This document shows, in pieces, positions 1,258 to 31,082 of a stretch of DNA of 42,921 nucleotides (position 1 is the stretch's first letter; every line of letters begins with the position of its first letter). Source of the DNA: a virus; the IMG/VR virus record IMGVR_UViG_3300033463_000305, positions 1 to 42,921 of that record; one strand, 5' to 3'. A program made the translations under genes and the position numbers. The notes under the pieces are model-generated. The model was not told the origin of the DNA and did no database searches. It saw only the letters and a program-made list of their open reading frames with translations.

Positions 1258-4200
1258 TTATGCCGTTGGCAGATTCAGCGTCGGCACGGACCTGCTCGCC
1301 GTGCCGTCCGGGTTCTGCTTGTTGGCCTTTGCTGCCACATCAGCGGGGATTGCCCCGGATTGCCATTCGTCGTAATACTTGGCGTAGGTCTTGCTGGTAT
1401 ATTCCTCTCCGCGTTCCGTCATGAAGGCCGTTTTGGCCACATAGTTGGCGAAGTTACCGCACCAATTAAGGACCTCAGCCTGCTCGTCTGCGGGTAGGGC
1501 TTTATACCACTTGCTCTTACGCACGGCGTCCGCAAATTGCGTGGTGACTTTGCCCCTGGTCTCCTGGTACTGCGTCCGCTCGTCAGGGGTCAGCGTGTAC
1601 TTCTCCTTGTTGATGGTGATGGAGTAGGGGGCGTTGCGCTCGGGGAGGATTTTTGCCTCTCCCGTTTCGTCATACACCCGCAAAAACTCGTCCGTGACTG
1701 CGGTTGAGTGGTAGACGCTGATATTGCCCGGGCTGAGGAGGGCGTTCAGAGCGTTCAGCGCCGGCGCTTGATAAGCCTTCTCCTCGCCCAGCGGGGTGAG
1801 TTTCGGCGCGAGTTGCTGACGGACGCCGGGGATGGCGTTTGCCACTTTCGCCGCCGTCTGTTCCAGGAGGTTCTGGCTCCGGTACTGGTCCCTGTAAACG
1901 GTGTCCGTTGCCTGGGCGATCTGGCGGATAGGCGCGGGGATGAAGCCGGAAACGGAGGACGCGGCGATCTCCATGGGAATCTGCATATACAGCGGGAGGT
2001 CGTTGGCCTCGTCGTGGTATCTCACCGTGCTGTAGATATTGGACAGTGTTTGCATTGCTGATGTGTCCTCCAGCGCCAGCCAGATTCCTTGCAGGCTCTT
2101 CTCCCCCATTTTCCCCGCCGTCTTGAGGTTGCGGAACATGTCATAGAGATCCATCGCCTTTATCTCCGGGTCGTTTACCGCCAGGGCCGCAATCGTCATG
2201 AGGGAGTCAAGCGGCTCCAGGAATCCGATGTCCGCCAGCACGTCACCCTCCTGCACATCAAGGCTCCCGCCGGAGAGCATCCTGCCCAGGGCGCTTACAT
2301 TGAGCTGGGTGCCGTTGAATCCCTGGGACTGGCGCAGCGCAGCGGCGTTTTTGTCCTTCTCATCGTCCTTGCGGCGCAGGAGCCCGGCTTTGGCCAGGAG
2401 GGCGAACAGGGTAATGAGCCCCGTCCCGGTGGTCGCCCTGCCGATGGAGAGGGCGGCGGCACGCTGCTTCGCCAGAGTGCTTTCCCCTTTGCTTTTGAGG
2501 TTCCCCAGTTGGGCAATGTTATAGATGGCCTTCAGGTATCCCACGGGGGAGAACTCAATGGCCCGGTGAATCAGGGCTCCGGGGACCTGGGTATATTTCA
2601 CCACCAAATCGCCCAGGCCAAAGTCATGCACCGGCAGTCCCTTGATGGTCTTGCCGTTGGTGGTCCCGGTCCCGATGATGTTCAGCACGTCCTTCAGCCC
2701 GCCCAGAATAGACCCTATGACCGTGCTGTCCTGGAAGGACCGATACAAGGCCATGTCTGTGGCGAACTCTGCGGCCTGCTCAACGGTCATGTCGCCACGG
2801 TCCACGAAGCGGGCCAAGCTCTCCATGGTCTCACCGTAGACGCTTCCCTTGTGAAATTCATCCGTGGTGTTGAGTTCATAGCCCAGGATGCGCTCCGCCT
2901 GGGAGAGTATCTTCCCCACCGTTCCGCTACTCGCCATGGCGAAGGTGCGGCGTCCGCCGGTCCCGTACTTAGACTGGTTCCGGTCATTCGGCGCGGCGTC
3001 CAGGGCGATCTCCAGAAGGTTTCTACCGGCTCCTTGCAGAGCGCCCTGCCGCTTCTGCTGGGAAGCCCAAGACTTGTTTAGGCCCACGCTCCGCTGACCC
3101 GTGATTGCCCCCATGATGATATCGGGCAAAAGGCCCACGTTGTTGGCGAGGGAGTCTACCATGTCGAACACCTGGTTGCTGGTCAGGTTCCGCATGGCGG
3201 TTCTGGCGTTCAGGAGGTGGGAGATGATCTGCACCGTGCTGATTTTCTCACCGGCCGTGCGGGGCTTGTAGTCTGCGGCTATAAGGTCGAGCTGCGCCAT
3301 GGCTAGGTTGCGGAGGTATTCCACGTCGGTTTCCCCGCTCAGCACTTTCTCCGCCATGCGGTCAAGCTTGGTGTTCCGCACCGCCGCCTGCTGCCGGATG
3401 AGGGACCGCAGCCCCTCCAGGTCATCGTCCGCCATGGCGTCCAGGGTATCGGCAAAGCTCGCCATGCTGTCCATGATCTGCCGCTGCTCCGCCCGGCTGA
3501 GCTTACCCAGGCCCAGGGCGTCCACCACAGCGTCCTCCACGTTGGCGTTGGTCAGGCCGCCCAGCCGGAAGAGATCGAGCAGCTTGTCCCGCTGTGCGGG
3601 CTTGACCCGCTCGCCCTTCTCCTCGAACATCTTCCGCAGAGCTTTGTCCGCGGCGGCAGCCAGCCGGTCCATGTAGTCCCCGGCGATGTAATCCGCAGCG
3701 ATGGCGGCGTCCGTGCCAGTGATGCCCAGGTCGTTGATGAGGTACTGCGCGATGGCGTTGGCCGCGTCGGTCTTGGTCTTGCGGCTCTCCCGGAGGAGGG
3801 ACTGGAGCTTCTGGTCCAGCTCCCGGGCCGCTTCCTGCTCCATGCGGCCCAGCCGCCCGGCCTGGTCGTCTTCCATGACCAGGTTGGTGATGTGCCTGGC
3901 CACGGCGTCCCGGACCTCGTCAGAGCCCACCTGCTTGGCGAACTCGTCGGCGATGCGGTTGATCGTGCTCTCATTCACTCCGGCGGCGGCCAGGTTCAGG
4001 ATGTCCTTCTTGCTCAGCCCCAGGGTGTCTGCGCTCTCCAGGATGGCCCGGAACATGGTCTGGTCCATGTCTCCGCCGTTGTAGGTGATCGTGGCATTCA
4101 GGAAGCTGTCCAGCGCCGCCAGCCGCTCCTCGTCCTCGGCGTACATGGCCCGCAGGACCTGCTTGGCCTCGTCCCAGGCCTGCGCGTAGGCCTCCCGGTT

Positions 4201-7200
4201 GTTGAGATAGTCCGTGATGCGCTCCACCGCGGTGCGGGGCTTCTGTCCTTCGGGACGGTCCGGGAGGGCATGCTCTTCGGCAAACGCCATGAGGTCGCCC
4301 AGGATGATCTGCATGGTGGTGCGCTCTTTGTTGCTCGGATCGTCAAAGCGCCTGCTGATCCGGTCCGCCAGCTCGTCGCCGGTGAGCTTGACCCACTGAT
4401 CGACGGGGGCACCGTGGTCTCTGGCGTACTTCTGGTTGAAGATGCGGTGGATCTGCCGGATGACGTTCTCCGCGTCCCGGGCTCTCTGCTCGGACCGCTT
4501 TTTCTCCTTGGGCAGCCGGGGCTTCCGCCCGGAAGTGTCCTCCACGGCTCCCTTCGCCGCCCCCTCGACAGCGCCGTCAACGGCCCCCAGGATCCCGCTC
4601 ACGTGGCCCTGGATGCGTTTCTGCTCCGCCGGGGTCAGCTTACCCGCCGTCTCACGGAGGCGCTCAGAGGCCTTCCTGGCTTGCTCAGTGGCGGTCCTGC
4701 TGTACTTGGCGAAGGCCTGCACGAACTGCCCGCCTTTGGTGCCCTTCTCCTGGATAACGTGGGACCACTCATGGAACAGGCTGTAGTCGCCGGTCTCGCG
4801 CCCGATCTGCCGGTACTGATGGAGGATGCCCATGGCGGTGTCCAGGTCGGACCCGCCCCACTGATCTGCGGTGGACAGCTTCTCCACCTCACCGGCGAAG
4901 TCCCTGCGCAGCCGCCCCAGGGCGTTCTGCATGGACTTCTGCTCGCTGATGGGGTCGTAGCTGAACTCTCCGGGCTGGGTCTCTGCCATCTGCGCCTCGA
5001 CCTCGTTGTACAGGCCGCCCAGCTCGAAGGCGTGGGTGCGGACCCGGGAGACCCTCTTCCTGCCCCGCCCGCCGGTGCGCCCGGTGCGGCGCTGTTCGGT
5101 GAGGTATTCCGCCTTGGCGATCTCCTGCGGGTCGATTTCGCGGGAGGTGTTACCAGAGGGCATCTTCGACTGGTAGGCGTAGTAACTCTTCGGGTTCTGC
5201 GGTTCGGAGATGATATCAGGGTCGATTTCCCGCAGCGCCTCGCGCAGGGAGGGCGTCACAGTGTTTGCGGGGATTTTGATTCCTGTGCCCTTCAGGTCGT
5301 GGTTCACAATGCGGTCCGCCACCTCGGCGTCTGAAAGCACACGGGCAACTTTCATCCACCTGGAGAGGAACAACCTACGGGGCTCACCGCCAGCTTTGGC
5401 CAGCGCGGTGGCCACATCTCCGCTCTTCCAGTCCGCCCAGCCCACAGGGTCCTTGGCCATATCCGCGTGGTAGGGGTGGTCCTCCTCGCTTCTCGGCACG
5501 ATGACCTCAACAGTGACCAGGTTGGGGCGCTCATAAGCTCCCTTGAACTGATCATTCAGTACGTAGTTACTGGCGTGATTGTAGGGGTTGTACGCTACGC
5601 CGGTATTATCTCCGCTGACCGGCTTGCCGATGTTGGTGCTCGCCCACTTCGCTCCGGGTTTCATCGTGGCGGTCTCCGGGTGCTCGTCGGCCTTGATCCA
5701 GGACGCGCCGGTCTGCTCCCCATCTACGACATCGTACACATCGCCGTTCTCGTCCACATACCCGAAAGGAGCGGAACGGAAGATGATGTTCCCGGCGGTC
5801 CTCGGGGTCTTTCCTGCATTAGGGTCCCGGCGCACGGTGTCCGCCATGGGGGAGCGGAGAGCTTTGCGTCCATCCTCGTCCTCAACGACTTCCATGGTGC
5901 GGTAGAGGTGAATGACGTCGCCGTTTTTCTCGGCTTCGTTCAGGTCGCGCAGAGTATCAGGGTCAATTTCCCGGCTGAAGCGGATGTCATCGTCCTGGGC
6001 GTTGAACCGCTCAGACAGGGGGATGACGTTGCCCTGGTCGTCGTAGGTCACGGGGTCGGCGGATTTAATCTGATCGGGGTCAAATACCACGTACTGCCCG
6101 GAAGCGGTGTTCCGATATGTCGCGTCGATTGCGTCATAGCCAAGGGATTTCAGCTCGTCCTGAATCTCGGTATTGCTAAAACCCTTATCCTCAGCCAAAT
6201 AGTTTATGAACCGATAGGTGCGGCCCGCGATGAAATTTGCCTCGGCCTTGGACATTCCCATTCTTTGCAGGGCCTCTGCTCCACGGGGGATAGGCTCGTC
6301 CGCATTGATGATATTCCTCTGGGATAGATAAACCGACATAACCTTCGGTTCGGCTTTCCCGGAAAGACCGCTTCTTCCCCGGCGCACCCACTCCCGCGCC
6401 TCGTTTTCGTTCGGCGTGAAGTAGAAGCCGCCGCCAAATTCCAGATAGCCATCATGGTTTCTGCCCTGCTCGCCTCTGGAGAACTTGGTGAAATCATCCG
6501 TCGTGCCGTGGTAAGCCTTGATGGTATATCCAGCCTGCTTTGCCGCCTCGTCCACCATCCGCTGGGCGGTGCCCATGTCCCCGGATTCAACGGCGGCCAG
6601 ATAGTCGCGGTCGAGCTCGCGGCTGAATTTCACGTCCGGGATGCTGTTCAGTTTTGCCAGTCTGTCCGCGTCGTCGCCACTCCGGTATTCCAGAGTGTTC
6701 ACCCCGTTGTCGTCCAGCACCTTCCGCGCCTGGGCGGAGATGTCGCTGGGCACCACCGCCGCCGCGATTTCGTCAAAGCCGACGGCCCGCATGGGCTTGG
6801 CCTCGAAGTATTCCGTGGGAAGCTGCGCGGCGTCACGGTATAGCTGTCTGAGCTCCTGGGCAATATCCTTGCCGATGGTGTACCCGTCCTTGCTCATGGA
6901 CCGGGTGATACTGCTCTCCGTCTTAGCCCCACGCGCCGCGTTGATGATGGCCGCCGCGAGAAGGTCATACTCTTCAAAGCGGTTGTCACTCCAGTGCTTG
7001 GTGGAGCTGTATATCCGCTCCACGGCGTCTGTGATTCTGGCATCCAGGCCCTTTTTCAGTTGCTCAAATTCTTCCTGGTCAATCGCGCCCAGTCTGCCGC
7101 GATCCGCCCTAATTTCCTCAACGTTCCGGTATTCCGGCGTCGTCACGCTTTGCAGGGACCCGGCGGTAACGCCCCAGGTGCTCGCCCCGCGCTGCGGCTC

Positions 7201-10200
7201 CGAAGCCATTGCCCGCACGATGTTCTCCAGCGTGTACGGGTCATAGAGTGAATCCCATTCGCGCCGGTTTCCTGCGGACGTGTAGATGTCCTTCTGGTTG
7301 CGGATTCCCTTCTTAGCAACAAGACCGCTTGCCAGGTCGTTCAGCCATGCGCGGTACTCGGCTTCTGTTCCCTCGGTATTGAACTCCTGCCGGATTGCCG
7401 TCCTCAGTGCTTCCGTATCAACTTCCGCCCTGCTGCTATCGTTCTCCATCTGCAATACGGCGTAAAGGATGCTGTTAAGTTTGGAATACGGCTGCTCCTT
7501 GCTGTATAGCGCATCGGCCACACGCTCGACCGTGGCACGGTCTGCTTTCCCCTTGGCGAGGGTTTTCTGGATGTAGTCCCGTTTGAGCCATTCCCGCAGT
7601 TCGGGCTCGATCTTCATTGTTTCATCGTAACCCGCGCTAAAGAGTTCCTGCACATTATACTTGGCGGCGAGCTCCCGGAGGGATTCGTTGCTCATGTACT
7701 GAGAGTACGCCTTTTCTTTGGTCGGTGCTCTGTCAAGCCTCCCGGCTTCTTTCAGGAAAGCATACTTCAATGCGTCCTCGTTGCCGTAAGCGGTGGCGAA
7801 GTCTCCGTTGTGGCGATTCAGTTTGTCTTTGAGGTTGTCGTCATCAATGTACGTCTTGATGACATCCGCGTCTTCGCCCAGGATGTTCTCAATGCGGCTG
7901 CGCAACGCTTTGGAGGCTTTTTCGTCCAGTTTATAGCCAACCGTCGGGCTGGTCGGCGTCCAGGCGTCGCTGCCGAACACCCGGTTCCTCCGGTCCGCCT
8001 GCGGGTCGATGGTGTCCTTGGTGTACACCAGGGAGATGGGCCCGTACTTGGTGTGCCCGGCATCCGCCTTGACGATGGCGATTGACGGCGCGGGAGCCCC
8101 GCCCAGCTCGCCCATGTCGATAAGGTTGCGTTCTGTCAGATTATGAACAGCAATCAGATCGGCAGTTTCCTCAGCGGGCATCTCCATAGAAAAGCGATTA
8201 CCCGTAATCTCGGTGCTGGCGCTTCCCTGCGTCTGAGCGCCTCTGTTGTTCTTCGCCGGCACGACGCCACGCCGCTCTGCCGCCCGGATGTCCTTCTTGG
8301 CGGTGGCCTTTGTCCGCACGTCCCCGGCCCTGCCTCTGGCAATGTCCAGCATGTCGAAGCCCGCCCGGTAGTCCGCCAGAAGCTCCTCTATGATCTTGTT
8401 CTCGTCGGTGACGCCCAGGGAATTATAGGCCTCCGCATACCTGTCCACAATGCTGGAGAGGTACGGCTGGAGCCTTGCATCGGAAAGCAGCGCGTCCTCC
8501 ACCGCCTGGCGGTATCCGGGGGCACTCTTGATGAGCTTGTGCAGTTCCTCATGGTCAAGGATTTGCTGCCAGGTGAGTTTGCTGTGGTCGGCCTGGATCA
8601 GCATCCGCTTCCTGTCAGCGGAAATCCAGCCACGGAAATTGTAGTCCCCGCTGGAGTCGTTCACACGGCCCTGCCCGATCATGAATTGGAGGTCGATACC
8701 GTTCTTTGCCGCCTCCTGCTGCGCGGTGCGCATAGCGCCGTCCAGCATATCCGTCGGCATGATCTGGAACGTCTGGTCCTCCGTGCCTCCGGGTATGCCC
8801 TGTTCCGCCGCGCTGGTGAAGGTCAGATCCCGAGCTTCCGCTTGATCGCGGAGGCGATTTGCTCTGGCGTTTTGCTGGGCGAATTGGGTTTCTGCGCTTC
8901 GCTGGGCCCGGTTCGCCCGGTACTCCGCGAGGAATCGACCCAAACCGGAACGCCGTTCCGCTCGGTCAAGAATCTCCCGGCTCCGCTGGGTTTCTGCCGC
9001 TGCTCTGGCCCGCTCGCGGAAGGAAGTTTGAGGCTGCTGTTCTCCTGCGGCCTCTGCGGTTGCACGGTCGGAAGTTTCAATGGTTCGGCCATTGCTGACT
9101 ACCTCCTCAGTATTTGTCTCAAGATTACCCTGCGCCTGCGCCTGTGTCAACAGGTTCGTATTCAGGCGGGCATAGCTCTCCACGGCCTGGCGGATCTGCT
9201 GCCGTCCGGCAGAATCGTCCCTCACCGTATCGATCAGCCCGGATTCCCGGAGGGCCTGCATGGAGGCAGCATCGTTGATGATCCGCCGCGCGTCGTTCTG
9301 GGTAAGCTGTTCGCCGGAGCGCAGCTTGTCCAGCGCCTTGGCAAGGGGATTGCTCTCAGAAGGCGTAGGAGGCGCTGTGCGCGTCTCCGGCTCGGTGGGT
9401 GTCTCTGCATGCGCCTGCCCGGATTCTTTCTCGGCGGCTGCCCTGGCGGCAGACGCAGCATCTTCCGCGACACCTCCGGCATAACGGAGCACGTTGCCAC
9501 CCATGCCCATACCTACACCGGAGATAATGCCGCCCATGGCGTCCAGGGCAAGCCCGGTTATCCACTTCCGCAACGCCGGACCCGTTCCCATCTCGTCAAT
9601 GTCCTTCAGCAGCTCGCTCTTGTCACCGTTGATCATCAGGTCGGTGACGGTGTTGGCAAGGGTGGTGAAGGCTTCCTCGCTGCCCTCCACAAGGCCCTGC
9701 TTTCCGGCGTTGATGATCCAGGGCCCAACCTTTTTTGCCAGTTTGGAGACCCACTTTTCGGTGAGTTTTTCCCCGATGGTCTCTCCGGCCTTCGCCTCGA
9801 TGGAGCCCACCAGGTTGTCCAGGCTGATTTTCTCAAAGGCATATTCCGCGATGCCGGCGGCGTACCCGGTGAGAAGTGCCTGACCATCAGACGCGCCACG
9901 CTCCTTGGCGTCGTACACGGCCTGCTGGGCGGCTCCGCCAGACATGAGGGAGAGGGTGACGGGTTCCGGGACGCCGAAGCGATTCAACAGGAGCTGCGTA
10001 CCAGAATCGGCTAGGCTCATGCCGGTCTGGTAAGCGAAGGAGGCCAAATTGACGATCCCGGGGATTTCAGCCTTCGGGAATCGCTCCTCCAGGTTCTTGG
10101 ATACCTCGCTGCGGATCTGCTGCGTGATCTGGCCCGGCGCCTGTAAAGGCGTGTTATAATCAATCGGGCGGTTGTCGCCCATCATCCGCCGGATGTTCTG

Positions 10201-11373
10201 GACCGTGAGGTCTACCACGCCTGCAATGCTGGCCTGATTCAGCAGAGTCGAAACCGCCGACATTCCCGCAGCGGCCAGCGGGGAGCTGTCCACGATCCCT
10301 GCAATATCCTTCTGACGCTGTTGGGCCTTTCTCTCATTGAGCAGATGCTTGATGGAGTTGATATACTCGGTTGCTGCTTTTTGGCCCTCGGTGTTCCACA
10401 GGTAGAAGAAAATCGACCTCTCATCGTCTTGGATGAAATTGTACGGGTCGTTGGAGATGCCCTCCACATTGTCGCCGCCCCGGCTGTATACGTTAGCATA
10501 CATCCGCTTTGCCGGATCAAACGACGCAGCTTTCCAACGCTTGGCGTCTGCCGCGTTTCCGCCGCTGCGCAGAAGGAAATCATCCCTCCCGCGCAGAGAG
10601 GCGTATTTCTGATACTGAAGATCGCTGGCCAGTTTGTTATACTGAGAGGCAGCCTCCTGTTCTGCTGCATGGGCGGCGCTGGACTCTTCCGTAGCCTGCT
10701 GGACCCATGCCTGAATGTCTGCATCATTGTCACTGTAGGGATTGCCGCCCTTTGCTGTGAGCGCAGCGCCCAGACGCAGGCTTGCACTCAGTGCGTTACC
10801 CTTCGCCTGGTCCAGTGCATCAGAGGCAGCTCTTACCTGGTCCTCCGTGGTGCCGGTGCGTGCAAGTCCGCTCGCCCGCTCATACGCGCCGTACATGTTG
10901 CGGTAAATCGGCTGAATAGCCCTCAGCTCCTGCTCGGCACGCCTTGCCGCCCGGGGATCGTCGCCCTGCATAACGTCGTGAAGATGGTTCACACGGCGCT
11001 GCACGGCGTCAAGATCGCCCTGAGCTTTGTCAATCGCGGCCTGCCGCGCTGTGTTCGCAGCGTTCTCGATCCAATTAACGGGCTGAGAAGCAGACCCTAT
11101 GCTCCCGGAAACATGCGAGGACGCAGACGGCCCCACGAAGTCTTCGTTCATCTTCGTGGGCGAAACAAGGAGAGACTGCTGCGCAGGCTGACGCTTGACG
11201 CTGCCCTGAATCTTGGTCTGTACCTGTTCCTGGGCCCGCTTCTCCTGCTTGGCCTGTTCCTTGATGAAGGCCAAGGCATCTGCTTTCCCGGCGTCTGCGG
11301 TGCCTTTAGCCTGGGATTTGATAAACGCGAGGGCGTCTTCCTTGCTGGTGTCAGTACTGGAAGTCTTCAACAC
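1258..11373 (-). CDS. Giant polyvalent virion protein (3,371 aa) with HExxH metallopeptidase-like and ART-PolyVal-like modules; putative ejected/internal protein
   Basis: Uninterrupted 10,116-nt ORF with GTG start at 11373 behind GGAAGGGGG. LDHEELHKL lies at nt 8539-8553. YLAAVESGDM..MVDEAAKQAGYTIKAYHGTTDDFTKF..GGGFYFTP lies at ~6049-6606. It has Gly/Met-rich and hydrophobic segments and sits after the tail genes. Confidence 0.85.
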   Translation of the reverse strand: MLKTSSTDTSKEDALAFIKSQAKGTADAGKADALAFIKEQAKQEKRAQEQVQTKIQGSVKRQPAQQSLLVSPTKMNEDFVGPSASSHVSGSIGSASQPVNWIENAANTARQAAIDKAQGDLDAVQRRVNHLHDVMQGDDPRAARRAEQELRAIQPIYRNMYGAYERASGLARTGTTEDQVRAASDALDQAKGNALSASLRLGAALTAKGGNPYSDNDADIQAWVQQATEESSAAHAAEQEAASQYNKLASDLQYQKYASLRGRDDFLLRSGGNAADAKRWKAASFDPAKRMYANVYSRGGDNVEGISNDPYNFIQDDERSIFFYLWNTEGQKAATEYINSIKHLLNERKAQQRQKDIAGIVDSSPLAAAGMSAVSTLLNQASIAGVVDLTVQNIRRMMGDNRPIDYNTPLQAPGQITQQIRSEVSKNLEERFPKAEIPGIVNLASFAYQTGMSLADSGTQLLLNRFGVPEPVTLSLMSGGAAQQAVYDAKERGASDGQALLTGYAAGIAEYAFEKISLDNLVGSIEAKAGETIGEKLTEKWVSKLAKKVGPWIINAGKQGLVEGSEEAFTTLANTVTDLMINGDKSELLKDIDEMGTGPALRKWITGLALDAMGGIISGVGMGMGGNVLRYAGGVAEDAASAARAAAEKESGQAHAETPTEPETRTAPPTPSESNPLAKALDKLRSGEQLTQNDARRIINDAASMQALRESGLIDTVRDDSAGRQQIRQAVESYARLNTNLLTQAQAQGNLETNTEEVVSNGRTIETSDRATAEAAGEQQPQTSFRERARAAAETQRSREILDRAERRSGLGRFLAEYRANRAQRSAETQFAQQNARANRLRDQAEARDLTFTSAAEQGIPGGTEDQTFQIMPTDMLDGAMRTAQQEAAKNGIDLQFMIGQGRVNDSSGDYNFRGWISADRKRMLIQADHSKLTWQQILDHEELHKLIKSAPGYRQAVEDALLSDARLQPYLSSIVDRYAEAYNSLGVTDENKIIEELLADYRAGFDMLDIARGRAGDVRTKATAKKDIRAAERRGVVPAKNNRGAQTQGSASTEITGNRFSMEMPAEETADLIAVHNLTERNLIDMGELGGAPAPSIAIVKADAGHTKYGPISLVYTKDTIDPQADRRNRVFGSDAWTPTSPTVGYKLDEKASKALRSRIENILGEDADVIKTYIDDDNLKDKLNRHNGDFATAYGNEDALKYAFLKEAGRLDRAPTKEKAYSQYMSNESLRELAAKYNVQELFSAGYDETMKIEPELREWLKRDYIQKTLAKGKADRATVERVADALYSKEQPYSKLNSILYAVLQMENDSSRAEVDTEALRTAIRQEFNTEGTEAEYRAWLNDLASGLVAKKGIRNQKDIYTSAGNRREWDSLYDPYTLENIVRAMASEPQRGASTWGVTAGSLQSVTTPEYRNVEEIRADRGRLGAIDQEEFEQLKKGLDARITDAVERIYSSTKHWSDNRFEEYDLLAAAIINAARGAKTESSITRSMSKDGYTIGKDIAQELRQLYRDAAQLPTEYFEAKPMRAVGFDEIAAAVVPSDISAQARKVLDDNGVNTLEYRSGDDADRLAKLNSIPDVKFSRELDRDYLAAVESGDMGTAQRMVDEAAKQAGYTIKAYHGTTDDFTKFSRGEQGRNHDGYLEFGGGFYFTPNENEAREWVRRGRSGLSGKAEPKVMSVYLSQRNIINADEPIPRGAEALQRMGMSKAEANFIAGRTYRFINYLAEDKGFSNTEIQDELKSLGYDAIDATYRNTASGQYVVFDPDQIKSADPVTYDDQGNVIPLSERFNAQDDDIRFSREIDPDTLRDLNEAEKNGDVIHLYRTMEVVEDEDGRKALRSPMADTVRRDPNAGKTPRTAGNIIFRSAPFGYVDENGDVYDVVDGEQTGASWIKADEHPETATMKPGAKWASTNIGKPVSGDNTGVAYNPYNHASNYVLNDQFKGAYERPNLVTVEVIVPRSEEDHPYHADMAKDPVGWADWKSGDVATALAKAGGEPRRLFLSRWMKVARVLSDAEVADRIVNHDLKGTGIKIPANTVTPSLREALREIDPDIISEPQNPKSYYAYQSKMPSGNTSREIDPQEIAKAEYLTEQRRTGRTGGRGRKRVSRVRTHAFELGGLYNEVEAQMAETQPGEFSYDPISEQKSMQNALGRLRRDFAGEVEKLSTADQWGGSDLDTAMGILHQYRQIGRETGDYSLFHEWSHVIQEKGTKGGQFVQAFAKYSRTATEQARKASERLRETAGKLTPAEQKRIQGHVSGILGAVDGAVEGAAKGAVEDTSGRKPRLPKEKKRSEQRARDAENVIRQIHRIFNQKYARDHGAPVDQWVKLTGDELADRISRRFDDPSNKERTTMQIILGDLMAFAEEHALPDRPEGQKPRTAVERITDYLNNREAYAQAWDEAKQVLRAMYAEDEERLAALDSFLNATITYNGGDMDQTMFRAILESADTLGLSKKDILNLAAAGVNESTINRIADEFAKQVGSDEVRDAVARHITNLVMEDDQAGRLGRMEQEAARELDQKLQSLLRESRKTKTDAANAIAQYLINDLGITGTDAAIAADYIAGDYMDRLAAAADKALRKMFEEKGERVKPAQRDKLLDLFRLGGLTNANVEDAVVDALGLGKLSRAEQRQIMDSMASFADTLDAMADDDLEGLRSLIRQQAAVRNTKLDRMAEKVLSGETDVEYLRNLAMAQLDLIAADYKPRTAGEKISTVQIISHLLNARTAMRNLTSNQVFDMVDSLANNVGLLPDIIMGAITGQRSVGLNKSWASQQKRQGALQGAGRNLLEIALDAAPNDRNQSKYGTGGRRTFAMASSGTVGKILSQAERILGYELNTTDEFHKGSVYGETMESLARFVDRGDMTVEQAAEFATDMALYRSFQDSTVIGSILGGLKDVLNIIGTGTTNGKTIKGLPVHDFGLGDLVVKYTQVPGALIHRAIEFSPVGYLKAIYNIAQLGNLKSKGESTLAKQRAAALSIGRATTGTGLITLFALLAKAGLLRRKDDEKDKNAAALRQSQGFNGTQLNVSALGRMLSGGSLDVQEGDVLADIGFLEPLDSLMTIAALAVNDPEIKAMDLYDMFRNLKTAGKMGEKSLQGIWLALEDTSAMQTLSNIYSTVRYHDEANDLPLYMQIPMEIAASSVSGFIPAPIRQIAQATDTVYRDQYRSQNLLEQTAAKVANAIPGVRQQLAPKLTPLGEEKAYQAPALNALNALLSPGNISVYHSTAVTDEFLRVYDETGEAKILPERNAPYSITINKEKYTLTPDERTQYQETRGKVTTQFADAVRKSKWYKALPADEQAEVLNWCGNFANYVAKTAFMTERGEEYTSKTYAKYYDEWQSGAIPADVAAKANKQNPDGTASRSVPTLNLPTA

Positions 11374-26561: not shown

Positions 26562-26934
26562 CGGTCCCCAGGAGTTCCCGCGCCCTGGCCATCATCTCCG
26601 CTAGAGTGACGGGCTCCTCCTCCTGGTGTACGTCGGCCACAATCGGCTGCGCGGCCTTGCCCAACAGCCTGTCCAGCACAATCTCCGCCGCCCGGAGTTT
26701 GTCCCCTTGTCTGGCATCAGGATCGTCCAGGATTGCTTGGAGGGCGGACACCGCCTTGTCGCCCAGCGGCAGGAGCGCGTCCTTGAGATTGGACGGGAGT
26801 TTCGGCCTCCCGTTTCCCGCGTTGTTGCCCTTTGTAAACCGCCCCGTCTTGGCGTCGCGTTTGCCGTTAAAGGGCCGTTTATTCGGCGCAGGAGCAGAGG
26901 CGGCAACTCCGCCGCTCTTATCGTCCAGCATCAT
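26554..26934 (-). CDS. terS: Terminase small subunit (putative)
   Basis: GGAGG lies 5 nt upstream of the ATG at 26934. The basic motif GRFTKGNNAGNGRPK is typical of small-terminase-like proteins. It is the first gene after the late promoter. Confidence 0.6.
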   Translation of the reverse strand: MMLDDKSGGVAASAPAPNKRPFNGKRDAKTGRFTKGNNAGNGRPKLPSNLKDALLPLGDKAVSALQAILDDPDARQGDKLRAAEIVLDRLLGKAAQPIVADVHQEEEPVTLAEMMARARELLGTDE

Positions 26935-26982
26935 CACCGCCTCCTATCTGTAATGTTACATACGTTCCACTCATCCGATATG

Positions 26983-27011
26983 ATTATATCGAACAGATGT
27001 TCGCTTGTCAA
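26983..27011 (-). promoter_or_regulatory. Consensus sigma-A/sigma-70 promoter for the packaging/virion operon
   Basis: The - strand reads TTGACA (27011-27006), a 17-nt spacer, then TATAAT (26988-26983). It lies ~45 nt upstream of terS in the only sizeable gap between the early and late genes. Confidence 0.7.
26990..27003. promoter_or_regulatory. LexA (Cheo/SOS) box inside the promoter spacer
   Basis: CGAACAGATGTTCG is a perfect CGAAC-N4-GTTCG palindrome. It fits the Bacillus-type consensus CGAACRNRYGTTYC at 13 of 14 positions. Confidence 0.6.
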
Positions 27012-27053
27012 CGGCCGGCAACGTGGTCTGGTCGGCTCCGCATTCCGGGCACC

Positions 27054-27959
27054 TCATGATCTCCTCCTATACTCAGCATATGAGCAGGCCTTAAATACGC
27101 TCTTTCGGTTTACCCACCGCGCAAAGCTGATTTGCTCGGCGCTCGGGTATCCTCCATCATAATCCCGGTATGGCTGTGCAAACGGCTGTACCCCCATTGC
27201 GTCCAGGGCCAAAGCCCGCCGCTCCGCCTCCTCCACGTCCTGGACAAGCATATAGGCCCAAAACCTCGACGGCGCGATGCCTGCCTCTTTCATGTACGCG
27301 GTGGCCTGCTCGATCACGGGGAGCATTTCCTCGGTGTCGCATGACAGGCGGACAAACCTGATCCAATGCAATCTGGACAGGAGCGCCGCGTTTTCCGGGG
27401 TGATGAGGCGGGCGTCCAATCCCTGGTTGAAATCCACCCAGACGGCCTCGCCGCCCATGTCCTCGATCTGCCGAATGCCGTGGTCACAGGCCAGGACGTT
27501 GTTGTCCATGAAAACGATGTTTCGGCTGTCCGGGCGCTTGATGTCCCGCCAGGTGGCCGCCGGCCTGATCTTGCCCTCCTTTTTCGGGACGATGCACCAC
27601 GGGCAGGCCCTGATGCAGCCGCGGGTCAAAAATCCGATGGCGTAATCCACGCCGGGGTATATCGAATAGTCCGGGGGTGTGACCTCAATCTCAGGCGGAA
27701 GGCTGCCGTAGTCCTTGTACCCGGTGCCGCCCCTGATGATTTCGTCGGCATAAATCACGGTGTCGATGTCCGGGGAAAACGTGAAAACCTTGCTCATGTA
27801 GACCCGGTCGTAACGGTTGAAGCCGATCCACCATTCCACGGCGTCTCCCTGGGCCTTGTGCCATGCCGCGATCCGCATGAGGGCCAAATTCGGGAACGTG
27901 TCGCCGCGGCGCCGGTACCTGGCGTGGTAGCCGTCCACGTCAATCAGGCCGATCTTCAT
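27054..27959 (-). CDS. Radical SAM enzyme (phage family, function unknown)
   Basis: 301 aa with the CxxxCxxC cluster motif GCIRACPWC (nt 27594-27617). The N-terminal MKIGLIDVDG...FPNLALMRIAAWHK pattern is recalled from phage radical SAM proteins. Confidence 0.75.
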   Translation of the reverse strand: MKIGLIDVDGYHARYRRRGDTFPNLALMRIAAWHKAQGDAVEWWIGFNRYDRVYMSKVFTFSPDIDTVIYADEIIRGGTGYKDYGSLPPEIEVTPPDYSIYPGVDYAIGFLTRGCIRACPWCIVPKKEGKIRPAATWRDIKRPDSRNIVFMDNNVLACDHGIRQIEDMGGEAVWVDFNQGLDARLITPENAALLSRLHWIRFVRLSCDTEEMLPVIEQATAYMKEAGIAPSRFWAYMLVQDVEEAERRALALDAMGVQPFAQPYRDYDGGYPSAEQISFARWVNRKSVFKACSYAEYRRRS

Positions 27960-28914
27960 TCCGTCCCTCTTTCCTGCCCAAAGTCTTTCCCCATCGTTGC
28001 TTATATTCCTTCGGCGGTGTTCTCCTGGGAAACAGGGTTAGCTGCTCATGCTGGTGTCTCTCCCGGTACCGTGGCCCATCCCAGGATGGCTTGCCGCACT
28101 TGGCGGCCTCCAGTTCCCACCCCGCAGCTTTCAGGCTTGTCCCCGGCTCACTTTCCAGGATGAAGGTGATGATTCTGCTGTACCCTTCCTTTCGCGCTCT
28201 CCTGGCCGCCGCCCCGTAGAGGCATGAGCAAGCGTTCCGTGTCCCGTCGCTGCATAGCCTGGTAATCTCCAGTGTGTGTCCGTCGTCCAATCTCCTGCCT
28301 ACCGGGCGGCCAACGATGCACACGCCACATAGCTCCCCGTTTTTATAGGCTCCCAGGCTCCACTTGTGCCCACGCGCCGCGTCATGGTGCCGGTGGTACT
28401 GGATGACGAAGGCATTAGCCTCATGCAGAGAGATTTCCTGAACCTTCATTTTTCCATTTCCTCCATCGTCATCTGCTCCATTGATCCTCATGGCTCGAAG
28501 CCCTCCATGACGATCTGCAATTACCGTCCGTTGCCCTGCCGGATCATACCTCTCTCCGATGCCCCGACCATACGGGGGATTGCACCACACCACTTCACCC
28601 GCCCAGGGTTGGGCCAGACCATCATCTTCCGGGGAAAAGTATCTGGTGCACTTCGCATTGCTCTCTGTGGCGCAGGCGTCCAGGGAAAAGTGGAATATGG
28701 CGTCCAGCCGGTTGAATAGCTCCGGTGGCGTCTCCCAATCCTGCCGGATGCTCGTCAACATACCTTTGTTCACGGGTAATACCTCCTCCTCCGGCTCCGG
28801 CTTGCCCTCCAGGCGGCACTCCGCAGCACTCGCCGGGGAACAGCAGATTACGATAATCACGATCACGACTAGGCAGATAATCATGAGGCCAGTCCACGGG
28901 TTATCATCCATCAT
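27940..28914 (-). CDS. Composite ORF: TM peptide + N-terminal fragment of Dam-type N6-adenine methyltransferase + GNAT-fold (XF1762/Mom-like) module
   Basis: 324 aa in one frame. Residues 7-25 are hydrophobic. Residues 52-120 (DWETPPELF..SLDACA..NPPYGRGIG) match the front half of phage Dam enzymes only. Residues 156-324 start at their own ATG (28449) behind GGAGGAAATGGAAAA and carry HEANAFVIQYHRHH..GVCIVGRPVGRRLDDGHTLEITRLC..NACSCLYG. Confidence 0.65.
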   Translation of the reverse strand: MMDDNPWTGLMIICLVVIVIIVICCSPASAAECRLEGKPEPEEEVLPVNKGMLTSIRQDWETPPELFNRLDAIFHFSLDACATESNAKCTRYFSPEDDGLAQPWAGEVVWCNPPYGRGIGERYDPAGQRTVIADRHGGLRAMRINGADDDGGNGKMKVQEISLHEANAFVIQYHRHHDAARGHKWSLGAYKNGELCGVCIVGRPVGRRLDDGHTLEITRLCSDGTRNACSCLYGAAARRARKEGYSRIITFILESEPGTSLKAAGWELEAAKCGKPSWDGPRYRERHQHEQLTLFPRRTPPKEYKQRWGKTLGRKEGRNEDRPD

Positions 28915-30007: not shown

Positions 30008-30294
30008 GCTTCCTCCTTCGGTGGCTTCCTTCTGTATTCGCGCATCTTTTTGGCGAACAATCTGGTCTCCTCCTCCGTCAGGCCGACACAGGTATTCCCC
30101 ACGCCCTTCATGTCAAGGAGATTCTTGTCATAGCTCTGCATGATTGCTGGTCCGTGCTTCTTTTGCAGGATGCACACAGTCTGAACATAGGCAGCGCCTT
30201 TATGCTCCCGCTCATACACGACGGCGTACCGGCTTTCTTCGTTTTTGACGAAGCCCAGCTTCGCCAGCTTTTTGTCTGTCCTTGTGATTTTCAT
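30004..30294 (-). CDS. Hypothetical protein (96 aa)
   Basis: There is a TAATG overlap upstream and an ATGA overlap downstream. No family was recognised. Confidence 0.5.
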   Translation of the reverse strand: MKITRTDKKLAKLGFVKNEESRYAVVYEREHKGAAYVQTVCILQKKHGPAIMQSYDKNLLDMKGVGNTCVGLTEEETRLFAKKMREYRRKPPKEEA

Positions 30295-31082
30295 TATGTT
30301 TCCTCCTTCGGCGGCTCCGCCTGCTTATACGCTGCCTCCAGATGCCGGATCACCTCGCCGCCATACGCATTACGCGTTAGCTCAATAAACTCCTCCACCG
30401 TGCGGGTTTCGGCGTCCACGTTTATCCCGTGGTCTCGCGCAAACTGAGCGCGGCCCATATCACACGATCCCGTGAGCCGATGATGCCAGTCGTACAGATC
30501 TCGGCATGGGTATTTCACCCCAAGCAGATGCGCCTTGAAAAATGCATCAATCCGCTCCTCCTCCGACATATCCTCAAACAGCTTTTCCCGGAGCGCAGAC
30601 ATCGCACCCGCCAAAGTCTCCCCGTGGTCGAAGCACCGATCCTGCTTGACGATAAAACACGGCGTTGTGGTCAGGTCGGAGTTGACGATCTCTCCCTTCG
30701 CCACATTACCCCGGACAGAACGGATGATGGTCTCGATGTCATCAACCCGACAAACGTTTTTACCACAAAAGGATTTTAAGCCGGAGCCGTAGCCGTCGCC
30801 GTAGCCGGAGCCGTCGCCGTCGCCGTAGCCGGAGCCGTCGCCGTAGCCGTCGCCGGAGCCGGAGCCGTCGCCGTCGCCGGAGCCGTAGCCGTAGCCGGAG
30901 CCGTAGCCGTAGCCGTCGCCGTCGCCGTCGCCGTAGCCGTAGCCGGAGCCGTAGCCGTCGCCGTCGCCGTCGCCGTAGCCGTCGCCGTAGCCGTAGCCGT
31001 CGCCGTCGCCGTAGCCGTCGCCGGAGCCGGAGCCGTCGCCGGGATCAAAAAACGCTTTGATCCTCTTGTTCAGGCTCTCCAT
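30294..31082 (-). CDS. Protein with ~90-residue (D/Y/S)-Gly dipeptide repeat N-terminal region and a conserved C-terminal domain
   Basis: 262 aa. Residues ~13-101 read GDGSGSGDGYGDGDGYGYGDGYG.... The C-terminal CGKNVCRVDDIETIIRSVRGNVAKGEIVN.. domain is recalled from other phages with similar Gly-Tyr repeats. Confidence 0.65.
   Translation of the reverse strand: MESLNKRIKAFFDPGDGSGSGDGYGDGDGYGYGDGYGDGDGDGYGSGYGYGDGDGDGYGYGSGYGYGSGDGDGSGSGDGYGDGSGYGDGDGSGYGDGYGSGLKSFCGKNVCRVDDIETIIRSVRGNVAKGEIVNSDLTTTPCFIVKQDRCFDHGETLAGAMSALREKLFEDMSEEERIDAFFKAHLLGVKYPCRDLYDWHHRLTGSCDMGRAQFARDHGINVDAETRTVEEFIELTRNAYGGEVIRHLEAAYKQAEPPKEET
30781..31040. repeat. Hexanucleotide-type coding microsatellite (GCC-GTM / GCC-GGA units)
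   Basis: About 260 nt are built from the units gccgta, gccgtc and gccgga. On the coding strand every second codon is GGC. Confidence 0.9.

Follow-up and report, generated by a model that had tools for sequence, protein, structure and literature searches.

Overlapping Mom-like XF1762 and radical SAM genes in a phage early operon are probably independently acquired accessory genes

The early operon of a phage contig (IMG/VR record IMGVR_UViG_3300033463_000305, positions 1 to 42,921; this whole stretch of 42,921 nucleotides is referred to as the window) ends in two overlapping minus-strand genes. One encodes a 169-aa GNAT-fold protein of the XF1762 family and the other a 301-aa radical S-adenosylmethionine (SAM) protein, here called rSAM. 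The original prediction had read them as a split, Elp3-like or Mom-like system that modifies bases in phage DNA or host RNA. Our analysis favours a different reading, to which we give a probability of about 0.78: these are two independently acquired accessory genes, a partnerless Mom-like XF1762 gene and a stand-alone rSAM gene, lying in a variable slot for DNA-modification and anti-restriction genes. The evidence is the separate distribution of the two families, the mosaic homology of the locus and the relationships of the two proteins. The features of the locus are collected in Table 1.

Results

XF1762 and rSAM genes are not inherited together

The surroundings of 90 other rSAM loci were scanned over 6 kb per side with a hidden Markov model (HMM) built from 121 XF1762 sequences. 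These loci comprised four GenBank phages, six loci with a 74%-identical protein and 80 IMG/VR contigs whose rSAM proteins showed 45-73% identity. An XF1762 gene lay within 6 kb at 0/90 of them, the only matches coming from four copies of the window's own phage. The four closest usable relatives of the rSAM protein (79-90% identity) gave the same result, for a total of 0/94 other rSAM loci. Relative P0001 (L181, 90% identity) has a D12 adenine methylase upstream of its rSAM gene, and P0002 (L183, 86%) has no methylase or Mom-like gene. RusA is found upstream in P0005 (L184, 82%) and three genes upstream in P0008 (L185, 79%), where a C5 methylase follows immediately downstream. Both of these last contigs carry a Terminase_3/P22-portal late module like that of the window.

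The reverse scan found an rSAM gene within 6-10 kb at 2/80 viral and 2/80 genomic XF1762 loci (different GTDB species), or 4/160 in all. The viral cases were L160, with two genes between, and L146, where the rSAM copy is partial; in the genomic cases it lay 2.8 kb downstream (L191) or 1.5 kb upstream (L212). Across these four joint loci, all of them on Clostridia-type elements, the distance ranged from 0.8 to 2.8 kb, the rSAM gene lay on either side and the order varied, and the two genes were never adjacent. The closest XF1762 relatives (84% and 73% identity) follow a C5 methylase or a DnaC-like loader gene. Among 50,697 GenBank phage records, 16 contained rSAM and 32 contained XF1762, with none shared, and no rSAM gene was present in the XF1762-bearing phage records of aerobes. 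The two families thus do not co-occur beyond this genome, an outcome that the original prediction had itself named as refuting it.

The DNA of the locus is itself mosaic. By blastn, the rSAM homology blocks shared with the four relatives (77-91% identity) stop at 27954-27961, and the XF1762 homology block (76% identity to relative L176) spans 27985-28449. As these blocks break at the gene borders, the locus consists of two separate cassettes joined at the overlap. A blastn search of the 3-kb region against GenBank phages gave no match.

The XF1762 protein is a distant relative of Mu Mom

The XF1762 protein exceeded the curated equivalog cut-off of NCBIfam NF045478 (183.8 bits against 50; model positions 2-136 of 143), passed the gathering score of the Pfam Mom family PF25680 (33.8 against 27.1 bits) and matched phrog_1384, 'Mom-like DNA modification protein' (E = 1.2e-37). 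Its AlphaFold2 model (predicted local distance difference test score, pLDDT, 76.9) has a GNAT fold. The model had 201 PDB matches at E <= 1e-3, and the top 50 listed were all GNAT-family acetyltransferases. Mu Mom (8bv8) gave the highest query TM-scores (TMq 0.63-0.66) among the matches listed, and its sequence identity of 17-18% was among the highest of them. When the XF1762 profile was aligned by hhalign with a profile of eight Mom homologues, the probability was 97.5% (E = 5.7e-12 over 133 columns). Compared with the sequence of Mu Mom itself, the XF1762 profile scored 1 bit, with an hhalign probability of 0.3% for the single sequence, and PDB sequence searches with the XF1762 protein, both single-sequence and profile, returned nothing significant. 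These profile matches place the XF1762 protein, at some distance, within the Mom family, and the GNAT-fold, Mom-like assignment of the original prediction holds.

Mu Mom (PF25680; PDB 8bv8) is a Gly-tRNAGly-dependent synthase of N6-carbamoylmethyl-deoxyadenosine (PMC13219725). Silva et al. (bioRxiv 2023; Nat Commun 2026, PMC13219725) reconstituted the reaction and found Mom alone to be sufficient. It moves glycine from Gly-tRNAGly onto N6 of deoxyadenosine in double-stranded DNA, after which an on-base rearrangement of the adduct yields N6-carbamoylmethyl-deoxyadenosine (6-NcmdA), with no requirement for an rSAM enzyme or acetyl-CoA. Mom residues R111, S124 and R151 are essential for this activity (PMC13219725). 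In the XF1762 alignment the equivalents of Mom H58 (H19), E108 (E61) and N121 (N72) are invariant, those of R111 (R64) and S124 (S75) are invariant in 17 XF1762 sequences, and that of G156 (G103) is nearly so, with one Val in 17. Inspection of the sequence after beta4 found no Q/RxxGxG/A acetyl-CoA motif, its place being taken by a conserved DGTRNACS.

A basic segment of about 28 aa (residues 120-147) between beta6 and beta7 was poorly modelled (pLDDT 44-60) and contains the invariant residues P121, W123, R127, Q136, F140 and P146. It sits where Mom has an essential helix-turn-helix-like insertion (Mom residues 175-209). Mu Mom and XF1762 have in common the GNAT fold, a PF25680 match above the gathering score, membership of PHROG 1384, their occurrence as stand-alone phage genes and a DNA methylase neighbour at a minority of loci, and the beta6-beta7 segment of XF1762 may correspond to Mom's insertion. 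In contrast to Mom, with 241 aa, XF1762 has no counterpart of the first ~40 Mom residues and its inserted segment is shorter (~28 against 35 aa); nor was a Com-like regulator seen with it.

XF1762 genes were frequent in the phages or prophages of aerobes, among them Burkholderia (phi1026b), Pseudomonas, Mycobacterium abscessus, Streptomyces, Synechococcus, Pelagibacter and E. coli (Kapi1), and in genomes of Sphingomonadales, Achromobacter and Stenotrophomonas; the family extends further to phages of Clostridia and archaea. Their setting is a replication or DNA-metabolism module with helicases, RecU and DnaC-like loaders, and in 4/36 dereplicated loci a DNA methylase lay within two genes. A Pfam scan of the two nearest genes per side at these 36 loci found no conserved partner. 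In XF1762 neighbourhoods rSAM was no commoner than DUF5131, RecU or N6/N4 methylases. A literature search for 'XF1762' found no paper. By analogy with Mu Mom, the protein probably modifies DNA without a partner, using an active site that is partly changed.

The rSAM protein is a stand-alone radical SAM protein of a large family

The rSAM protein aligned end to end with phrog_9298 ('radical SAM domain protein'; E = 9.2e-88), residues 1-299 pairing with positions 1-293 of the 305-position profile. It shows 26-43% identity to the family's proteins from LoVEphage, phiCT453B, NatCom_21982, vir215 and vir335, and no feature sets it apart from them. The family is large: homologues fall into more than 8000 clusters at 90% identity, and at 50% identity 4854 clusters were found at E <= 1e-3 and 918 at E <= 1e-30. 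The GCIRACPWC motif, from which the original prediction had recognised a radical SAM protein, provides C115, C119 and C122, all invariant in alignments of 10 and 50 sequences. Outside this CX3CX2C motif no cysteine is conserved in the 50-sequence alignment, and the window protein has none at residues 1-114. The Pfam Radical_SAM model (PF04055) reached 13.8 bits, below its gathering score of 29.5, and matched the cluster loop alone; some homologues have a precomputed PF04055 match. NCBIfam and PADLOC gave no match.

The AlphaFold2 model (pLDDT 87.4) comprises an N-terminal beta/alpha domain, a beta/alpha radical SAM core of partial TIM-barrel form and three short helices at the end. Its only strong PDB matches were MtaB, MiaB and RimO (E from 2e-7 to 2e-6, TMq 0.57-0.59), followed by NifB, QueE and LipA at E ~1e-3, and Elp3 was not among the 50 best. 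MiaB, MtaB and RimO likewise place a flavodoxin-like domain in front of the radical SAM core, and the sequence around [ST]RGC..xC.xC.VP and an xxDNNV/GQNV strand matches theirs marginally. PDB sequence searches with single sequence and profile gave nothing significant, the best being MiaB at E = 0.035 with the cluster loop only. The rSAM protein differs from these enzymes in its length (301 against ~440 aa), in having no TRAM domain and in having no conserved N-terminal Cys and hence no auxiliary [4Fe-4S] cluster. Since it has no conserved N-terminal or extra Cys, sulfur insertion is excluded. Methylation of the RlmN/Cfr type depends on a conserved extra Cys, and the cysteine pattern also argues against an enzyme of that kind. 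An activase or QueE, which would have undercut the original prediction, was considered and rejected: an additional N-terminal domain precedes the cluster motif, which comes at residue 115, and the fold match to QueE is weak and partial (E = 2e-3).

In a viral structure library the model matched methylthiotransferase-like proteins, a 'B12-binding_like domain' and COG1032 proteins, a likeness to the cobalamin-binding-like (COG1032, class-B-like) rSAM enzymes. The N-terminal segment FPNLALMRIAAWHKAQGDxV resembles the PxGLxYLAAxLxxxGxxV motif of rSAM enzymes with a B12-binding domain. No Pfam B12-binding match was obtained, and class B structures were not among the best PDB matches. Family members occur in phages and prophages of Clostridium, Clostridioides, Bacteroides, Oscillospiraceae, Marinitoga and Methanomassiliicoccales and on 23 plasmids, and all sampled loci (phage, plasmid and prophage) were on mobile elements. 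No paper was found in the literature with the phrases searched on phage-encoded radical SAM proteins. Taken together, rSAM is a predicted stand-alone radical enzyme, possibly directed at DNA.

DNA-modification genes recur beside rSAM genes

In 37 dereplicated phage loci, a DNA methylase of the C5, N6/N4, D12 or Dam type lay within 4 kb of the rSAM gene in ~12-15 cases and a PAPS-reductase-like gene in three. SNF2 helicases, ParB and RusA were also common. A Trichlorobacter plasmid has its rSAM gene flanked by two PAPS-reductase-family genes and a C5 methylase. More distant members (27-29% identity; family HMM E from 1e-27 to 1e-29 over both domains) were found on pNL1 (L276, 58291-69208) and a Mesorhizobium plasmid (L277), both conjugative and alphaproteobacterial. 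There a 537-543-aa rSAM protein belongs to a conserved cluster with a DGQHR-domain protein and an ATP-binding protein. A PIN-like protein and an ATPase accompany the cluster on both plasmids, to which the Mesorhizobium plasmid alone adds ParB-N and a DEAD helicase. DGQHR is a DndB-type domain tied to DNA phosphorothioation (PMC3226654). We found no paper describing the DGQHR-rSAM-ATPase cluster. These neighbourhoods point to a DNA-directed role for rSAM.

Clustering and Pfam scanning of 141 neighbours revealed no conserved partner for rSAM, with no family present in more than 4/37 loci within two genes, and no conserved small open reading frame (ORF) was found downstream. One neighbour cluster was set aside, since a single fusion protein had merged N6/N4 methylases with SNF2 helicases in it. 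Long rSAM 'fusions' with TraG, ERF, ParB, topoisomerase, ABC or YodL/LPD26 contained mostly partial domains; they were counted as neighbours or chimeras and not as Rosetta-stone evidence.

Two further observations concern these neighbourhoods. DUF5131 (the phage Gp37/Gp68 family) was among the nearest neighbours at 2/37 rSAM and 3/36 XF1762 loci, in the same variable slot. In the Bacteroides phage LoVEphage (L001, OY731433.1), the deposited annotation has a barrnap '5S ribosomal RNA' at 3176-3281, ~700 bp upstream of rSAM; either an error of annotation or a small structured RNA could lie behind it.

Gene calls and surroundings of the locus in the window

The longest ORF over the XF1762 gene (27940-28914, minus strand) encodes 324 aa and is composite, a piece of Dam being followed by the XF1762 module. 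Residues 54-117 correspond to the first 40% of the Dam domain (PF05869 positions 6-71 of 169, E = 3.8e-18) and residues 158-291 to the XF1762_fam match. No full-length Dam methyltransferase domain is present in this ORF by PF05869 or TIGR01712: the C-terminal 60% is missing and TIGR01712 scored 60.5 bits, under its cut-off of 97. PADLOC orphan methyltransferase models also match the fragment. The ATG at 28449 is the right start of the XF1762 gene, because stand-alone homologues are 155-170 aa long, a GGAGG lies 10 nt upstream and the DNA homology to L176 starts exactly there. The 169-aa module of the original prediction therefore stands.

Table 1. Coordinates of the features at the XF1762-rSAM locus
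Feature	Position	Strand	Description	Basis
rSAM gene	27054..27959	(-)	301 aa, stand-alone radical SAM; N-terminal flavodoxin/B12-binding-like domain without conserved Cys, then radical SAM core	phrog_9298 (E = 9e-88); CX3CX2C at residues 115-122; AlphaFold2 mean pLDDT 87.4; PDB matches MtaB/MiaB/RimO
XF1762-family gene	27940..28449	(-)	169 aa, GNAT fold, distant Mom family member	NF045478 (183.8 bits); PF25680 (33.8 bits); phrog_1384; AlphaFold2 GNAT fold; profile-profile comparison with Mom homologues
Gene overlap, 20 nt	27940..27959	(-)	3' end of XF1762 and 5' end of rSAM; junction of two mosaic homology blocks	
Shine-Dalgarno-like GGAGG	28460..28464	(-)	10 nt upstream of XF1762 ATG	Read from sequence
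Shine-Dalgarno-like GAGGG	27965..27969	(-)	5 nt upstream of rSAM ATG, within the XF1762 coding sequence	Read from sequence
Dam (PF05869) N-terminal fragment with NPPY	28564..28755	(-)	In frame upstream of XF1762, inside ORF 27940-28914	
Perfect sigma-70 consensus promoter	26983..27011	(-)	Between the rSAM gene and the gene at the small-terminase position	TTGACA-17-TATAAT, 12/12
Lar-like restriction-alleviation ORF, 74 aa	29783..30007	(-)	Same early operon	PF14354 (31.7 bits, gathering score 28.6); phrog_599 (E = 1.9e-5)

With its Dam fragment, Lar-like ORF and promoter, the region has a DNA-modification or anti-restriction character. An anti-restriction neighbourhood had been proposed on the strength of a Dam fragment, a Lar-like ORF and a C5-methylase remnant; the first two were recovered and the remnant was not. 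With three C5 methylases as tblastn queries no hit went below E = 0.3, and none of the early ORFs examined with Pfam contained a methylase. The late promoter expected after the two genes was found as a 12/12 sigma-70 match. Long ORFs of the window with family matches lie nearly all on the minus strand, and identical copies of the locus are found on metagenomic contigs of 40-43 kb with Terminase_3 and P22-type portal genes directly downstream. No tRNA genes or Rfam families were found in the window.

A minus-strand block of 79 bp around the promoter (26934-27012) is 93.7% identical to contig L184, against 69-82% for the flanking genes, and is probably a conserved control region of the late operon. 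A 28-aa ORF (26971-27057, minus strand; MRCPECGADQTT...) contains this promoter, overlaps the rSAM stop codon through ATGA and is preceded by AGGAGG. At its position L184 has a 56-aa Zn_ribbon_NrdR gene, with homology breaking after ~11 codons, and the 28-aa ORF looks like a deletion remnant.

Ahead of the Dam fragment, the ORF part at 28450-28914 (minus strand) begins with a hydrophobic N-terminal extension of 50 residues (MMDDNPWTGLMIICLVVIVIIVICC...). Dam may originally have started at a GTG near 28771, which GGAGGAGGAGG precedes. The same N-terminal piece is matched by PHROG 22740 (profile length 99) and by a PADLOC orphan-methyltransferase model of 140 positions, so short Dam-N-terminal ORFs may recur; no Dam fragment was found at other XF1762 loci. 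Elsewhere in the window, a 262-aa early protein (30294-31082, minus strand) consists of ~90 N-terminal residues of GDGY/GSGY repeats and a globular C-terminal part, with no significant family match. A single 3371-aa ORF occupies 1258-11373 (minus strand) in the structural region and presumably encodes a giant tail or host-interaction protein.

Discussion

HMM and structure searches confirmed the family assignments of both proteins, and our results argue against the functional link that had been drawn between them. If the two formed a split Elp3-like enzyme, the GNAT protein would bind an acyl donor on which rSAM generates a radical, and would install a carbamoylmethyl-like adduct on phage DNA or host RNA. 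Several features make the idea attractive. The two genes overlap by 20 nt within one operon, a few other elements hold both families within 10 kb, and Elp3, the catalytic subunit of Elongator, itself combines fused rSAM and KAT/GNAT domains to form 5-carboxymethyluridine (cm5U) on tRNA, so that modules encoded side by side here recall its architecture. Karambelkar et al. (2020, PMC7261163) had also suggested that Mom works by an Elp3-like mechanism together with an rSAM protein encoded in trans. Unlike Elp3, though, these are two separate genes that are not co-inherited, as the counts at rSAM and XF1762 loci, the absence of adjacency elsewhere and the breakpoints at the gene borders indicate. 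XF1762 is widespread in phages of aerobes, whose records have no rSAM, and its protein has no acetyl-CoA P-loop motif of the GNAT type; the rSAM fold resembles the methylthiotransferases, with Elp3 outside the best 50 matches. The chemistry also speaks against it. The Mom branch uses aminoacyl-tRNA and not radical chemistry: none of the 67 E. coli Fe-S/rSAM knock-outs tested was needed for Mom (PMC7261163), Gly-tRNA alone suffices in vitro, and Silva et al. call the Elongator and Mom chemistries unrelated (PMC13219725). As Mom works alone with Gly-tRNAGly, the premise that its type of chemistry calls for a radical partner is outdated (PMC13219725). We regard a split Elp3-like enzyme as very improbable.

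Each protein might instead act on something other than DNA. XF1762 could be an ordinary acyl-CoA-dependent acetyltransferase of a protein or small molecule, serving for example host takeover, and in line with this its top fold matches are generic GNAT acetyltransferases, its Mycobacterium prophage homologues are annotated 'acetyltransferase', counterparts of Mom Y59, R151 and Y159 are not conserved, and the direct comparison of its profile with Mu Mom was insignificant. This we judge quite unlikely, given the Pfam Mom and phrog_1384 matches, the profile-profile alignment with Mom homologues, the invariance of the equivalents of the essential R111 and S124 and of the E..R / D..RN..S motif, the lack of a CoA pyrophosphate-binding motif and the conserved basic insertion at the position of Mom's DNA-binding one. 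Its replication or DNA-metabolism setting points the same way, albeit with few methylases nearby. For rSAM, the corresponding proposal is an action on RNA or protein like that of MiaB, MtaB or RimO, or some other part in host takeover, the closeness of methylases reflecting the accumulation of accessory genes. The enzymes that it most resembles in structure modify tRNA or ribosomal protein S12, it has no single conserved partner, and ~60% of its loci have no methylase within 4 kb. Set against these points are the missing N-terminal Cys triad for the auxiliary cluster and the missing TRAM RNA-binding domain, which define the methylthiotransferases, and the recurrence of DNA-directed neighbours (C5, N6/N4 and D12 methylases, ParB, PAPS-reductase-like and DGQHR/DndB-like genes). 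We consider this proposal possible, though on balance doubtful.

Some observations weigh against two independent, DNA-directed genes. The frequency of 4/160 is far above the naive global frequency of rSAM (at least 552 of 2.9 million viral contigs), and the scans covered the best 80 loci each with flanks of 6-10 kb. In the window the genes overlap and are certainly co-expressed. We tentatively attribute the excess to common hosts and to both genes favouring one variable module. Mom-type chemistry is not assured for XF1762: Y59 and Y159, which like D149 are important in Mom, are replaced by R20 and L106 respectively, and the loop carrying Mom D149-E150-R151 is two residues shorter and has no Arg (D149 and E150 fall in a gap and R151 aligns with L98, in an uncertain stretch of the alignment). 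For rSAM, the putative DNA-directed role is read from gene neighbourhood.

We therefore retain two independently acquired genes as the best explanation. The slot would close the early operon in a phage of the P22-portal/Terminase_3 kind, whose host was probably one of the gut or rumen Clostridia; a decayed Dam gene adjoins it and a Lar-like gene lies nearby. By analogy with Mu Mom, the most likely role of XF1762 is the post-replicative modification of a base in double-stranded phage DNA; it would use an aminoacyl-tRNA as acyl donor and need no partner protein. The rSAM protein, with a single predicted [4Fe-4S] cluster, most likely generates a 5'-deoxyadenosyl radical by cleaving SAM; judging by its gene neighbourhoods, it would act on DNA or possibly another nucleic acid. 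Co-transcription and the 20-nt overlap would then have arisen by mosaic recombination and not from mutual dependence.

A phage rSAM partner for a Mom-like GNAT protein would have given a genetic handle on the puzzle of N6-carbamoylmethyl-adenine synthesis. That puzzle has been solved independently, with Gly-tRNA and no radical enzyme, and since the genes are uncoupled here the question is not opened again. Both proteins belong to families that are catalogued but uncharacterised. That of rSAM is large and found repeatedly among DNA-modification genes; if directed at DNA, this phrog_9298-type class could be common to phages, plasmids and the DGQHR (DndB-like)-rSAM-ATPase clusters. It is a tentative and rather unlikely prospect that each gene represents new biochemistry, rSAM as a class of DNA-directed radical enzymes and XF1762 as the source of a different aminoacyl-derived DNA adduct. 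XF1762 forms a large and widespread sister branch of Mom with a partly changed active site, and is a natural target for studies of tRNA-dependent DNA modification.

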